This document shows positions 20,595 to 44,098 of a stretch of 64,000 nucleotides of DNA, piece after piece; positions within the stretch are counted from its first letter, which is position 1; each line of letters starts with the position of its first letter. The DNA lies in the NCBI GenBank assembly GCA_048938105.1, contig JBHLMN010000001.1, positions 288,001 to 352,000 on the forward strand. The letters run 5' to 3'. Origin of the DNA: Promethearchaeota archaeon. Its GTDB lineage: Archaea > Asgardarchaeota > Heimdallarchaeia > Hodarchaeales > Hodarchaeaceae. The notes under the pieces are model-generated. The model was not told the DNA's origin and made no database searches. It saw only the letters and a program-made list of their open reading frames with translations. Made by a program: the position numbers and the translations under genes.

Positions 20595-22298
20595 TTAGAG
20601 ATAAGATTTAGAATCAGTAGGGGAAATTCTTTTAACATATCCCCGTTTTCGTAATTCTTCTAAACACTCTAGTTCTACATCTTGATCTCGCTGTGTTATT
20701 TCTGTTGATGTTTCAGGAGAAAGTACTTTAGACGTTAGTAGTGCCCTAATAGTAGGCCTTAATTTTTCGGGTAATGCTAGTATCCCTAGGGTGTCGAAAG
20801 GTTGGATCTGAACGTATTTAGGGGGTTCTGTACATGAACAAACCTTTTTCCCTGTTTCTTCTTCTAGTTTAAGAAGAAATGGTCTTGGATTGATTCCTAA
20901 TTTTAGGAGATATTCATGCCTAATGTTATGGGTAGTTGTGAACTCATATAACAATAAATCCTTCACAGTGGGGTCAGAAAAATATTTTTGAACGTAATTA
21001 TGGAATAAAATTTCAGGATCCCCACGTAAGAGATCCATTTCAGCTCCATATGCAAGTATCATTTGCCGTAATTGTTCGTTTACCGTATCAATGTCAAAAA
21101 CATATGATTCAAAGATTTCTTCCACAACTTTTGTAGCCCCTGCAAATCCTCCAGTTTTTCCAGTCTTGGAAAAATCATGAATTGCTTCACTAAACTCTTT
21201 CTCAAAACGTTTAATATATTGAAAAAGCAATTCTGTCAGGGTGTCGGTCATCACTGGGCTATAGAGGATACCAATAATCCGTGTTCCTTTTCGTTGAACA
21301 ATTTTCATATTTCCATTGTCAATATAACGTAAATCACCTCGTCGTCCAGCAGTCTCCGAAACCATATGAGCGATGCTAGTCAATGCTGCTGTTATCAGGG
21401 CTGGGTTCTTCATCTCATCCTCTGCCTTTCCAAAGAAATAATAGTACATTGTTGATCCTGATTCTCGGTCTGTTATAAATATGGCAATGGGTGATGCTTC
21501 GGTTTCACTAGTAATCCTTCCAAATTCCTCTTTCTCTGTGATTTCCTGGAATTTTTGGTTCATATCTTGAAATGTTTCATTTACTGGGGATTGTGGAGAT
21601 TCCAGATAATAAATCCCTTGATCTGAAAATTCATTAAGTTCAGGAACCCAAGGAATTGTGTAAAAAATTGGATGTCTTAATTTTGATTCCATCTGTTCAA
21701 GAATTTGTTCAAGTTTCCCAAAGACCACAGGGGGTTTAACCATGTTCATGATTAACAAAGTTGGAGTAGTAAGGAAAGATAAAAAGTTTTGAATTACAGA
21801 TCTAGTTAAGCTGAAAGTAGGATATTTTTCAGACGAGATAATCCAAACCATATCACTCTGAAGAATGGCTTGCATTGTAATACTATTCTCTTCCAGATTA
21901 GCTGGTAAGATAAATGCTAGAAGATCAATTGTGTCTTTGAAAAAAAGTGCATTAACCCGATATTTTGTCCGTTCTCTTAAGTCAATTTGTGGAATTGGGC
22001 ACCCAGCAGAAGGCAGAACACGAACAAATGAGCCTTTATCCACATCATCAAAGATTGATAAGGACTCACTTACAAGAGTATCTTCAGAAATTTCGCTTAG
22101 GAAATCTGTACTGGTGAATTGAGATTTACCATATTTTAAAAGAGAATATCTTAGCTTTTCGGTGATGGAAAAATCAACAACAAGAATTCGCAATCCAGGC
22201 CTCGAGTGAGCGTAAGCTAAGAAAAAATTTAGTGTAATGGTCTTTTTTCCACAACTAGGGGTACGAGAATAAATACTGATCACTTTTGGAGTAGCCAT
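20595..22298 (-). CDS. Degenerate MinD/ParA-like domain + longin domain + C-terminal wHTH-like region
   Basis: KVISIYSRTPSCGKKT, RILVVDFS, LLIMNMV, IPWVPELNEFSDQG; longin IAIFITDRESGSTMY...LITAALTSI...LRYIDNGNMKIV; C-terminal VELECLEELRKRGYV. Confidence 0.7.
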   Translation of the reverse strand: MATPKVISIYSRTPSCGKKTITLNFFLAYAHSRPGLRILVVDFSITEKLRYSLLKYGKSQFTSTDFLSEISEDTLVSESLSIFDDVDKGSFVRVLPSAGCPIPQIDLRERTKYRVNALFFKDTIDLLAFILPANLEENSITMQAILQSDMVWIISSEKYPTFSLTRSVIQNFLSFLTTPTLLIMNMVKPPVVFGKLEQILEQMESKLRHPIFYTIPWVPELNEFSDQGIYYLESPQSPVNETFQDMNQKFQEITEKEEFGRITSETEASPIAIFITDRESGSTMYYYFFGKAEDEMKNPALITAALTSIAHMVSETAGRRGDLRYIDNGNMKIVQRKGTRIIGILYSPVMTDTLTELLFQYIKRFEKEFSEAIHDFSKTGKTGGFAGATKVVEEIFESYVFDIDTVNEQLRQMILAYGAEMDLLRGDPEILFHNYVQKYFSDPTVKDLLLYEFTTTHNIRHEYLLKLGINPRPFLLKLEEETGKKVCSCTEPPKYVQIQPFDTLGILALPEKLRPTIRALLTSKVLSPETSTEITQRDQDVELECLEELRKRGYVKRISPTDSKSYL

Positions 22299-33658: not shown

Positions 33659-34366
33659 TTGAGGAAGGTAATTTCTTTGAGTACTGATGTAGAATCATTA
33701 TCTGTACTTATTACTTCTATTGTAGATCTTGGAGCTAAAATTTGTGTTTTATCAGACATTTCAGGGTTACCTATTGTTACTCGTTCGAAAATAGACACAG
33801 AAGATGTAGAAATTGCACTTAGTGCTCTTAGTAGCCTCGTCATTTCAACAGGAGATACTATTGCTCGAGAGTTAGAAGGAAATTTTGTGAATATGTCTGT
33901 TCGAACCAGTGGTGGTTTACTCCTCTCTACTGTTATCGATTCAAACCCCAAGGTAGTACTTACGGCTATTGTTGATGAAAATCTTGAAACCACTATTATC
34001 CACGAAATGCGTCGTCTTCAACCAATTATCTCTAATGCTATTGAAGGAGTAGCCATTGAAATAAAAGAACGTGAAAGACTTCAGGCTCCTAATCAACGAA
34101 AGATTCTCACATTCTTTGATTCATTTTCTCTAAAAGTAAACCAATCAGACTCTCCGAATAATCTAGTTAGTATTATTCAAGCAGCGAAGGATGATCTATT
34201 TACATTAGTTAATTCAGGTACAATTTCCTATGAAATGAATAGATTTGCTCTTATGTTGGAAAAACAAATCCAATATAAATCTGTCAGCCCAGAAATTTTA
34301 TCAAAGATAAAGGTAGAAATAAACAATGCTGTAGAAGACTGGAAAAGACGACTCTTACCTGAATAG
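33659..34366 (+). CDS. Roadblock-domain protein with C-terminal helical domain
   Basis: ICVLSDISGLPI...ALSALSSLVISTGDTIAREL...VVLTAIV. Confidence 0.75.
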   Translation: MRKVISLSTDVESLSVLITSIVDLGAKICVLSDISGLPIVTRSKIDTEDVEIALSALSSLVISTGDTIARELEGNFVNMSVRTSGGLLLSTVIDSNPKVVLTAIVDENLETTIIHEMRRLQPIISNAIEGVAIEIKERERLQAPNQRKILTFFDSFSLKVNQSDSPNNLVSIIQAAKDDLFTLVNSGTISYEMNRFALMLEKQIQYKSVSPEILSKIKVEINNAVEDWKRRLLPE

Positions 34367-41981: not shown

Positions 41982-42623
41982 TTGAATCAAAGTGTTCGGA
42001 TTTTCAAGAAGCGCCTTCAAATTTCCCAGAAAAAGTGGAACACAGTTCAGGGCCATTCATTAAGAACAGTAAATACCATTTTAACCATTCTTTCAAGATT
42101 AAATTTGACTCAACGTCCCGATGCTTTCTCAAAAGCGCTATTAACCAGATTTACTGATATTCCAGAACGTTTAGCCTATCATCTTGCTGAATTGATAAAT
42201 AAAAGTATTACAGAGCTATATTCTTACATTGAACAATTCTCTGATATTGTTCGTGAAATGAGAAAAATCGAGAAAATTTTTCGGTTAGATTTCTCTCTAA
42301 TGGCAAAGAAACATGTGACAAAAAGAAATGAAGCATGGCCTCATGATCTTGAGATCATAGAACAAGCTGAAAGGACTATCCAAGAAATTGTTGATATGTA
42401 TGAGACTGAGCTCACACTTAGAAAGCAACTAATAAATGAAATACAGGAATCAGTCTGTTTACAACCCTTAAAGATCACAGTTTACTTGGTTCTTTGGACA
42501 TCAGAAGTGTATATTGAGCCGACCAGGATTCATGAGCTCATTGAGGAATTTACACATGTTGAAAAGGTTTATGAACGTGTGTCTCAACAAGAATCTTATA
42601 ATTCTCTTCCAAAATCTCGCTGA
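41982..42623 (+). CDS. CINP/C1orf109-like helical protein
   Basis: KKWNTVQ, FTDIPERL, WP, MYETELTLRKQLINEI, YLVLWTSEVYIE match remembered CINP/C1orf109 patterns. Confidence 0.7.
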   Translation: MNQSVRIFKKRLQISQKKWNTVQGHSLRTVNTILTILSRLNLTQRPDAFSKALLTRFTDIPERLAYHLAELINKSITELYSYIEQFSDIVREMRKIEKIFRLDFSLMAKKHVTKRNEAWPHDLEIIEQAERTIQEIVDMYETELTLRKQLINEIQESVCLQPLKITVYLVLWTSEVYIEPTRIHELIEEFTHVEKVYERVSQQESYNSLPKSR

Positions 42624-42664: not shown

Positions 42665-44098
42665 CTAACTTGCATGGAAATTTGCTGACTTCAGAATTTT
42701 ATCAATTGATCCATTGCGAAATCCACGAACTAATAATCCCTGAATCTTATCGTTAACAGCGTACTCAGGTTCACCATTCTCTAAAAATTTCCTTACTAAA
42801 TTCATTGAAACCGTTAAGTTATCTCGAGCAGTTTTTTCTAAACCAGCTGAATATATAGCTACACCTCTTAATTGAGAATTTTGTGGCCCTACTTGTGAAA
42901 TAAAGACACATCGTTTGTCTCCTGCAGTTAAATGGTCAGGTGTATGTCCAATTAAGTCAGAGCTCATTGACTGAATAGCAGAGAATAGACCTGTATACAA
43001 ACAGACTTCTTGACCAGCTGGACGGTGACTTGCAAATAAAGGAAGACCACCATCATCGAAAATATAGATCTCCGAATCTGAGAATATCCTGTTCAAAACG
43101 TTAAAACGTTCATCCTCTTCAGAGGAATCTGATAGTATTGCGTCTGTAAAATTTCTTTTGATTGAAGTTTCACATGAAGCAAGTGCTGGAGTAACAGAAG
43201 TTAGAAAATCAGTTGAGGCAAAACTGGGTACAATATTTCCTATTGGATTAGAATCTGTCAGAAAAATTACCACATTATACCCTGAAATGTAAGGGTTGAC
43301 AATATTAGAAAAAATAATCTCAATTTCTTTTCCAAATGTTTTTGCTATTTGTTTGGATGTATTATTCATTACTTTAAGACTAAGAGATTTAACTGAAGTC
43401 ACAGATATAAATATCATCTCTAAACTTTCAAGTTTTTCAGGGATTGTGGCGACTAATCTCTCACCAACCTGGTTAATAACTTCTTCTATTGCATCTTCTA
43501 AGATTGTTGAAGATGAAATTCCATAGTACATACATTTAGATTCACCAAAAATACGAATTAAATTGGAGAATGAAACTCCAAATCCAGGGGATGGAGTAAG
43601 ACTTGAAATTAGGGTATCTAATAAAACAAGAAATTTCCATCTACCTTTTTCAAGATTACAATCAAAATGAAAATAACATTCACCAAATATCTCCCTTTGA
43701 CAGGAGTTTAATCCTGTTCCTGTATCAATGAAAATAGGAACGGTTCCAGAAAATTCTATAGAAGCTAGAATGGCTCCTAAAGCCCTGAAAACTTCCTTTT
43801 CAGAAGAATTAAAAATAAATATTAAAAAATAGGCATTTAAAAGGCTGTAGATCTGTGGTATCATCGTTTCGGAGTCAAAACTGACTACTTGATCACAGAT
43901 ATCAGGAGTGATTGGTGTCCCAGTTGTTATAAGCAGTAGAGGTAAGCGAGACTCACTTTTTGTAGTTAAATAATCATTTAGAAGTTGTAATTCAGCTGTC
44001 AGATCATTTCCAATACATATGATTTTCCCACGTGGCCGAAAATACTCCAATATTGAATTTTTATCAGATTGTGAGCTCAAAGCTAATATCTCTTGCAT
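42665..44098 (-). CDS. Degenerate FtsZ/tubulin-like domain fused to C-terminal longin domain
   Basis: PGFGVSFSNLIRIF..MYYG, IFISVTSVKSLSL, IIFSNIVNP..YNVVIFLT follow the FtsZ C-domain; longin EIYIFDDGGLPLF...LYTGLFSAIQSM; no GGGTG motif. Confidence 0.65.
   Translation of the reverse strand: MQEILALSSQSDKNSILEYFRPRGKIICIGNDLTAELQLLNDYLTTKSESRLPLLLITTGTPITPDICDQVVSFDSETMIPQIYSLLNAYFLIFIFNSSEKEVFRALGAILASIEFSGTVPIFIDTGTGLNSCQREIFGECYFHFDCNLEKGRWKFLVLLDTLISSLTPSPGFGVSFSNLIRIFGESKCMYYGISSSTILEDAIEEVINQVGERLVATIPEKLESLEMIFISVTSVKSLSLKVMNNTSKQIAKTFGKEIEIIFSNIVNPYISGYNVVIFLTDSNPIGNIVPSFASTDFLTSVTPALASCETSIKRNFTDAILSDSSEEDERFNVLNRIFSDSEIYIFDDGGLPLFASHRPAGQEVCLYTGLFSAIQSMSSDLIGHTPDHLTAGDKRCVFISQVGPQNSQLRGVAIYSAGLEKTARDNLTVSMNLVRKFLENGEPEYAVNDKIQGLLVRGFRNGSIDKILKSANFHAS

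Follow-up and report, generated by a model that had tools for sequence, protein, structure and literature searches.

What does a protein do that joins an apparently inactive FtsZ to a longin domain? We addressed this for a reading frame of 477 residues, uninterrupted by stop codons, within a 64,000-nucleotide window (the whole stretch of DNA analyzed) of a Hodarchaeales genome (5.85 Mb, 99% complete, 7% contaminated; genome coordinates C52:330665-332098). Hodarchaeales belong to the Asgard archaea and are frequently placed nearest to eukaryotes, and the gene touches two open questions: whether Asgard archaea divide by FtsZ or by ESCRT, and what purpose is served by the dozens of Rab-like GTPases and longins that they encode. 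Both folds are already known, as is the shuffling of Asgard longins, but we found no published report of an FtsZ-longin fusion, and likewise no description of a GTPase-intact one, in the literature searched, which consisted mostly of main texts available without subscription and included PMC12583498, PMC9871819, PMC10933270, PMC10936438 and PMC12993045.

A first-pass annotation, made from the sequence alone, had proposed a pseudo-FtsZ fused to a longin domain, acting as an adaptor or filament cap. The frame and the stretches quoted for it are present (T7/H8-like, 171-184; strand, 229-235; 261-269; 276-281). A TTG at residue 7 is an alternative start that would give 471 residues, and the Atlas record begins there. 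Homologues number 68 and share 37-100% identity with it; most carry the label Hodarchaeales, Hodarchaeota or Heimdallarchaeota. GTDB loci with homologues include Ca. Hodarchaeum mangrovi and B3_Heim, and the organism that bears our gene is accordingly very probably a Ca. Hodarchaeum. These homologues, together with the dN/dS values below, rule out a pseudogene or an open reading frame artefact. Pfam returned nothing above its cut-offs: PF12327 reached 13.6 bits against a cut-off of 27, PF00091 did not match, and a sub-threshold Ribophorin II match (E 0.003) is spurious given the FtsZ and longin folds. An ESM Atlas feature search gave nothing usable for the whole protein; for the longin alone it gave only archaeal clusters, unnamed and longin/roadblock-like. 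Feature coordinates are collected in Table 1.

Table 1. Features of the pseudo-FtsZ-longin gene and its convergent neighbor, in window positions.
Feature	Residues	Position	Strand	Basis or remark
Whole gene (pseudo-FtsZ, linker, longin)	477 aa	42665..44098	-	ORF; homologues mostly 457-477 aa
FtsZ N-terminal domain (Rossmann-like, GTPase-type)	19-167	43598..44044	-	AF2, Foldseek, VIA, alignment
T1 loop position	29-34	43997..44014	-	One Gly remaining instead of glycine-rich phosphate loop
T4 signature position	96-102	43793..43813	-	FNSSE where FtsZ has GGGTGTG; S98 invariant
T7 loop and H8	168-186	43541..43597	-	N207 and D209 equivalents lost; D212 equivalent is Asn
FtsZ C-terminal domain	187-283	43250..43540	-	Pfam FtsZ_C, Foldseek, VIA
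Disordered linker	284-326	43121..43249	-	pLDDT <50 at 291-325; conservation 0.36
Helix alpha0 ahead of longin	327-341	43076..43120	-	AF2 models; helix itself 327-338
Longin-type domain (bb-a-bbb-aa)	342-462	42713..43075	-	Model of domain, Foldseek, VIA
Alpha1 and beta3: predicted homodimer interface, near-invariant exposed alpha1 face with G370	364-395	42914..43009	-	
Convergent neighbor, C1orf109/CINP-like		41982..42623	+	Pfam PF15011, E 3e-11; synteny marker only

Whether the N-terminal region takes an FtsZ fold had been set beforehand as the refutation test. An AlphaFold2 model of the whole protein (mean pLDDT 76) confirmed that residues 19-283 are predicted to form the complete two-domain FtsZ fold, more than its C-terminal half. 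The best 50 Foldseek matches were all FtsZ (E 1.6e-12), and VIA-align placed model residues 19-283 on FtsZ residues 6-312 with Z 20.0 and an rmsd of 3.2 Å over 252 aligned residues. The whole fold is shared with 2q1x, 1w58 and OdinFtsZ1 (9v7v) at Z 17.9-20, although identity is 10-15%. Sequence homology is weak and runs from H7 through the C-terminal domain, in keeping with the FtsZ likeness originally seen at about residues 165-282. Here HHalign against Hodarchaeales FtsZ gave E 1.5e-5 over residues 165-285, and a family profile (67 members) searched against the PDB found 26 sequences at E<10, every one an FtsZ (best E 0.0012, profile positions ~156-273). Pfam FtsZ_C weakly matches 17 of the 67 members (best E 4e-4). 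HHalign probability was ~79% for FtsZ1-type proteins, 5% for FtsZ2, 3.7% for tubulin and 0.1% for CetZ-like proteins; these profile scores rule out a CetZ or tubulin origin and lean toward FtsZ1-type. In the core tree, which has long branches, the AU test gave p 0.56 for placement with Hodarchaeales FtsZ and intact fusions and 0.42 for placement with FtsZ2, which it thus did not reject. Overall, the protein seems to have arisen from FtsZ within Hodarchaeales.

In the alignment with intact FtsZs, neither the GG[GA]TG[ST]G signature nor the T1 glycine motif occurs in any family member (0/67 for each). The T3 glycines are missing, the T5-to-H6 region is altered and shortened, as is the S6/H6 region of an N-terminal domain whose nucleotide loops are replaced, and the T7 catalytic N-x-D-x-x-D reads G174/S176/N179, so that T1, T3, T4, T5 and T7 all differ from FtsZ. 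The reported loss of the GGGTG(S/T)G loop thus stands for the family, whereas that of the catalytic Asn/Asp residues applies to this protein and not to all its relatives: the D212 equivalent is Asp in 37 of the 67 and Asn in 24, so motif loss is incomplete across the family. By established FtsZ chemistry, replacement of T1, T4 and T7 would leave the core unable to bind or hydrolyse GTP. Since its catalytic motifs fail FtsZ membership, the most fitting description of the protein is a pseudo-enzyme derived from FtsZ and bearing a longin-type domain. New residues have become fixed or nearly so in the old T4 and T5 loops (N97 in 64/67, S98 in 67/67, D125 in 66/67 and G127 in 62/67).

The longin sits where FtsZ has its C-terminal tail. 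Residues 325-477, folded alone, gave alpha0 and then bb-a-bbb-aa; the first strand (342-347) agrees with the start near residue 342 given by the first-pass annotation, and alpha0 is an extra helix ahead of it. The best Foldseek match was human MON1A (E 2.4e-4), with MglB interleaved, and a wide VIA search returned Ragulator-type roadblock, TRAPP, CPLANE, BLOC-3 and Mon1-Ccz1 proteins at Z 8.0-9.1, the matches spanning model residues 16 to ~150. The two C-terminal helices make the domain longin-type by the criterion in the accessible text of PMC10933270. Roadblock/MglB structures score within a single Z unit of the longin matches, and the domain is therefore most safely assigned to the longin/roadblock superfamily and described as longin-type; the weak sequence matches are LC7 roadblocks.

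The longin domains are predicted to form a symmetric homodimer through beta3 and alpha1, mainly residues 360-397. The prediction scored 0.53 against 0.00 for the best of three controls; of proteins with a solved one-chain pair 20 of 30 attain this mark, compared with 1 of 23 solved as a single chain, and the score may reflect longin/roadblock dimer structures already known to the predictor. Agreement between runs covered 92% or more of the contacts, with pLDDT of at least 84. Mon1-Ccz1 has the same beta-strand/alpha1 geometry, its paired alpha1 surface binds Ypt7, and Mon1 likewise has an alpha0 (PMC5216073). More broadly, Mon1-Ccz1, TRAPP C1/C4, Fuzzy-Inturned, BLOC-3 and MglB share with our protein the fold (Z 8-9), the central-strand and antiparallel alpha1 dimer (predicted here) and an invariant alpha1 Gly; our protein differs from them in being a predicted homodimer, not a heterodimer, and in its fusion to a tubulin-superfamily fold. 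The position of the Mon1 catalytic-site Lys, K233, we take by eye from the beta-hairpin motif to be Leu352 here; the Lys is apparently absent, and Mon1-like GEF chemistry is therefore not implied. Some longins have no GTPase role, according to the accessible part of PMC10933270.

Conservation is highest in the longin. It reaches 0.96 in the predicted dimer interface, and alpha1 positions outside that interface are equally constrained (0.94-1.0, G370 invariant), which suggests that the exposed alpha1 face may bind a second, conserved partner. By contrast with its longin and with canonical FtsZ, the pseudo-FtsZ core is maintained but relaxed. Across 13 congeneric genomes, with dS saturating in distant pairs, the core showed 44-78% identity and dN/dS of ~0.13-0.26, the longin 73-94% and ~0.03-0.08, and the canonical FtsZ core 88-98% and ~0.01-0.03. 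On these computed values, both domains are under purifying selection.

We searched 399 Asgard genomes with the longin profile. Matches reached E<1e-53 in every genome of the genus (21/21) and ~1e-21 in the other genomes of the order (2/2). Elsewhere among the Asgard genomes the lowest E was 1.4e-10, and the best outside matches examined were other longins, such as GTPase-longin fusions. An ORF of 442-551 residues bears the longin in every genus genome. Dead versions with cores decayed in different ways also occur (P0069, P0078, P0081, P0088 and ORFs in L027 and L028). The C1orf109/CINP-like gene adjoins P0069, P0081 and P0088 as it does our gene, and the L028 member adjoins a homologue of a 720-residue membrane protein; these common neighbors support the orthology of the distant dead versions. 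In distantly related Hodarchaeales (L005, L067, L141) the C1orf109/CINP-like gene and the pseudo-FtsZ gene keep their convergent arrangement. One MAG carries a dead fusion split into an adjacent 263-residue core and 183-residue longin (P0096 and P0077; ACTSP4_06260 and ACTSP4_06255), either genuinely or by assembly error.

The family also includes GTPase-intact members. P0076, of 572 residues, joins this longin to an FtsZ that retains every motif; five further clusters (P0083-P0087) and additional members (P0090-P0095) share this state, for example MFX0113186.1, and are annotated merely as FtsZ. Their loci include L065:7807-9522, L066:7907-9640, L142:2790-4517 and L144:10001-11728. Because they occur in several Hodarchaeales-labelled MAGs, the intact fusion is not a chimera; a pattern search of GTDB contigs and JGI metagenomes found no others. 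They share our protein's architecture, and most end in AS as it does, but they differ in their GTP motifs, in gene neighborhood and in a linker with a basic, membrane-targeting-like stretch. That stretch, read by eye, lies directly before the longin; a hydrophobic-moment scan of linkers did not discriminate. In a tree of longins, a single clade (95/93) holds every one of the 17 fused domains, whether joined to a dead or an intact FtsZ. The FtsZ part of the intact fusions branches as sister to the one canonical FtsZ of Hodarchaeales (92/95) and falls outside the FtsZ2 clade; OdinFtsZ1 was recognized through PDB 9v7v. The simplest history is a single FtsZ-longin fusion in the Hodarchaeales ancestor, with decay of the GTPase in most lineages; alternatively, the intact lineage may have gained its fusion later, by transfer of the longin to a new copy of FtsZ.

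In four contigs, a Rab-like GTPase gene on the same strand precedes the intact fusion by 250-620 bp, in the order TFIIB, Rab-like GTPase, fusion, EamA. The best match to this GTPase in our genome lies at C61:21969-22550 (67-68%). This adjacency may be incidental, since it is confined to one lineage and the same GTPase occurs near ino1, without a fusion, in the host genome of our gene. No small GTPase adjoins the 477-residue gene and the genome has 77 Ras-family (PF00071) matches, so no single GTPase partner can be named and adjacency is weak evidence. Two or three of the Ras-family matches fall inside the window (C52:290098, 307818 and 351113). A promoter scan was no better than chance.

The division machinery of Hodarchaeales is already unusual. 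Every genome searched has one canonical FtsZ (C9:85539-86855 in our genome, L001; orthologues L036-L057), which lies outside the FtsZ2 clade, and CetZ-like paralogues, whereas SepF (PF04472) had no match in 23/23 Hodarchaeales genomes. In 19 of the canonical Hodarchaeales FtsZs the C-terminal end is basic-aromatic (K-K/R-F/I-L-G-L/I-F), and we take it to resemble a MinD-type membrane-targeting sequence; the genome's own FtsZ has this end and the 477-residue protein does not. Given this end and the unmatched SepF, canonical Hodarchaeales FtsZ may anchor itself to the membrane. A CetZ-like tubulin-superfamily gene of 454 residues lies just left of the window (C52 ~281.1-282.5 kb; L002:649-2013, minus strand); its GGGTG motif is intact, it is kept across the order, and many genomes have a second paralogue.

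Our preferred reading, to which we give a little under an even chance, is that the longin forms a dimeric platform on whose alpha1 helices a small GTPase or a comparable partner docks, with nucleotide-dead FtsZ folds attached as interaction modules. The protein would be a Hodarchaeales-wide scaffold or adaptor that arose when a longin was fused to an FtsZ copy whose GTPase later decayed, and the longin would be its main functional part. Two longin domains are predicted to pair by beta3 and alpha1, and by analogy with Mon1-Ccz1, TRAPP and MglB the paired alpha1 helices could serve as the docking site for a small GTPase of the Rab-like kind or for a further longin-type protein. The two pseudo-FtsZ heads, each on a flexible linker, would then work as nucleotide-independent modules and bring the platform close to FtsZ or to proteins that bind it, without themselves polymerizing or hydrolyzing GTP. 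Of the two roles originally proposed, the predicted dimer and the near-invariant alpha1 make the adaptor or platform plausible; the cap gained no support, as set out below.

A broader proposal, which we regard as rather doubtful, extends the adaptor reading to the whole family: FtsZ would be coupled to a Rab-type GTPase switch by a dimeric longin, and the dead versions would recruit GTPase signaling to the ring or cytoskeleton. The intact fusion would be the starting state and the dead versions the derived adaptor, in a lineage lacking SepF and FtsZ2. If true, the control of a tubulin-family cytoskeleton by GTPases would have a precedent in prokaryotes.

Among the rival explanations, a filament cap or inhibitor, in which the T7/C-terminal face docks on the GTP face of canonical FtsZ, takes up no further subunit and so terminates or cuts the filament, with a GTPase in control, seems unlikely. 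It would fit the facts that the C-terminal half is the part still recognizable by sequence, that the D212 equivalent is Asp or Asn in 61/67, and that F184, F255, G256 and D282 are invariant across the family. However, the equivalents of N207 and D209 are lost, and the docking face (T7/H8/H10/S9) is conserved at 0.68 against a core mean of 0.65; since this polymerization face is close to the mean, capping or co-polymerization gains no support. The core has also fallen to its present identity range while the supposed partner FtsZ has kept a far higher one, and L028 and P0078, from other lineages, have decayed in different ways.

We consider it distinctly unlikely that the FtsZ fold now serves as a sensor or scaffold outside division, with its old loops (FNSSE, IDTGxG) binding a new ligand or partner and regulating a signaling platform built on the longin, much as in the numerous Asgard fusions of sensors to longins. 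The strong conservation of the former T4/T5 loops in their new sequence speaks for it, as do the lack of any division gene seen nearby and the fusion of Asgard longins to many signaling domains, described in the available portion of bioRxiv 10.1101/2020.10.19.343400. Yet the former GTP-face loops overall are no more conserved than the core (0.65 for both), SS[DE] could be explained as a helix N-cap, and the FtsZ origin and the intact fusion favor a cytoskeletal context.

Less probable again is a bivalent bundler or spacer, in which the longin dimer cross-links FtsZ-type heads in a ZapA/SepF-like role with no GTPase involved. A homodimer is indeed predicted, SepF is unmatched, each genome has a single canonical FtsZ that falls outside the FtsZ2 clade, and in the intact fusion a dimerizing tail would cross-link real filaments. 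But the near-invariant alpha1 face beyond the dimer interface points to an additional partner, the FtsZ faces lack conservation, and SepF is undetected also in families f3, f5 and f6, which have no strong match to this longin. That the FtsZ part is a decaying passenger of a longin working alone is very hard to credit: the core does evolve several times faster than the longin and one MAG has the gene in two ORFs, but the selection signal in the core largely refutes this, and full-length longin-bearing ORFs persist throughout the genus with a complete fold at high pLDDT.

Other tubulin and FtsZ relatives have left the canonical role, namely Misato/DML1, FtsZl1/FtsZl2 and thaumarchaeal FtsZ-like proteins (PMC9871819, PMC12993045); none is reported with a longin in the accessible text of these sources, and we found no sequence link between them and our protein. 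The family described here unites the FtsZ and longin systems in one polypeptide, kept across Hodarchaeales in active and dead forms, and offers a possible connection of the archaeal cytoskeleton to small-GTPase signaling as well as a candidate FtsZ-family pseudo-enzyme with an active relative in view. Asgard longins are fused to many domains, and the fusion could be another lineage-specific shuffle. The protein is small enough for expression, and the set to be tested is compact: the longin dimer, the single FtsZ and the Rab-like GTPase suggested by synteny. Localization is feasible because a hodarchaeal culture, Ca. Margulisarchaeum, exists (cited in the available text of PMC12993045).

Three further proteins caught our attention. 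A Fusobacteriota-labelled ESM Atlas cluster of 272 residues has FtsZ_C without the common Tubulin Pfam domain, matches our model at TM 0.73 by target and is possibly an independent pseudo-FtsZ family. In the window, the gene at 33659-34366 (plus strand) appears by eye, with no Pfam match, to encode a Roadblock-like N-terminal domain and a helical C-terminus. A 567-residue protein at 20595-22298 (minus strand) has a ParA/MinD-like N-terminus and an apparent longin segment at ~270-390, and is, judged by eye, another fusion of an NTPase fold to a longin.
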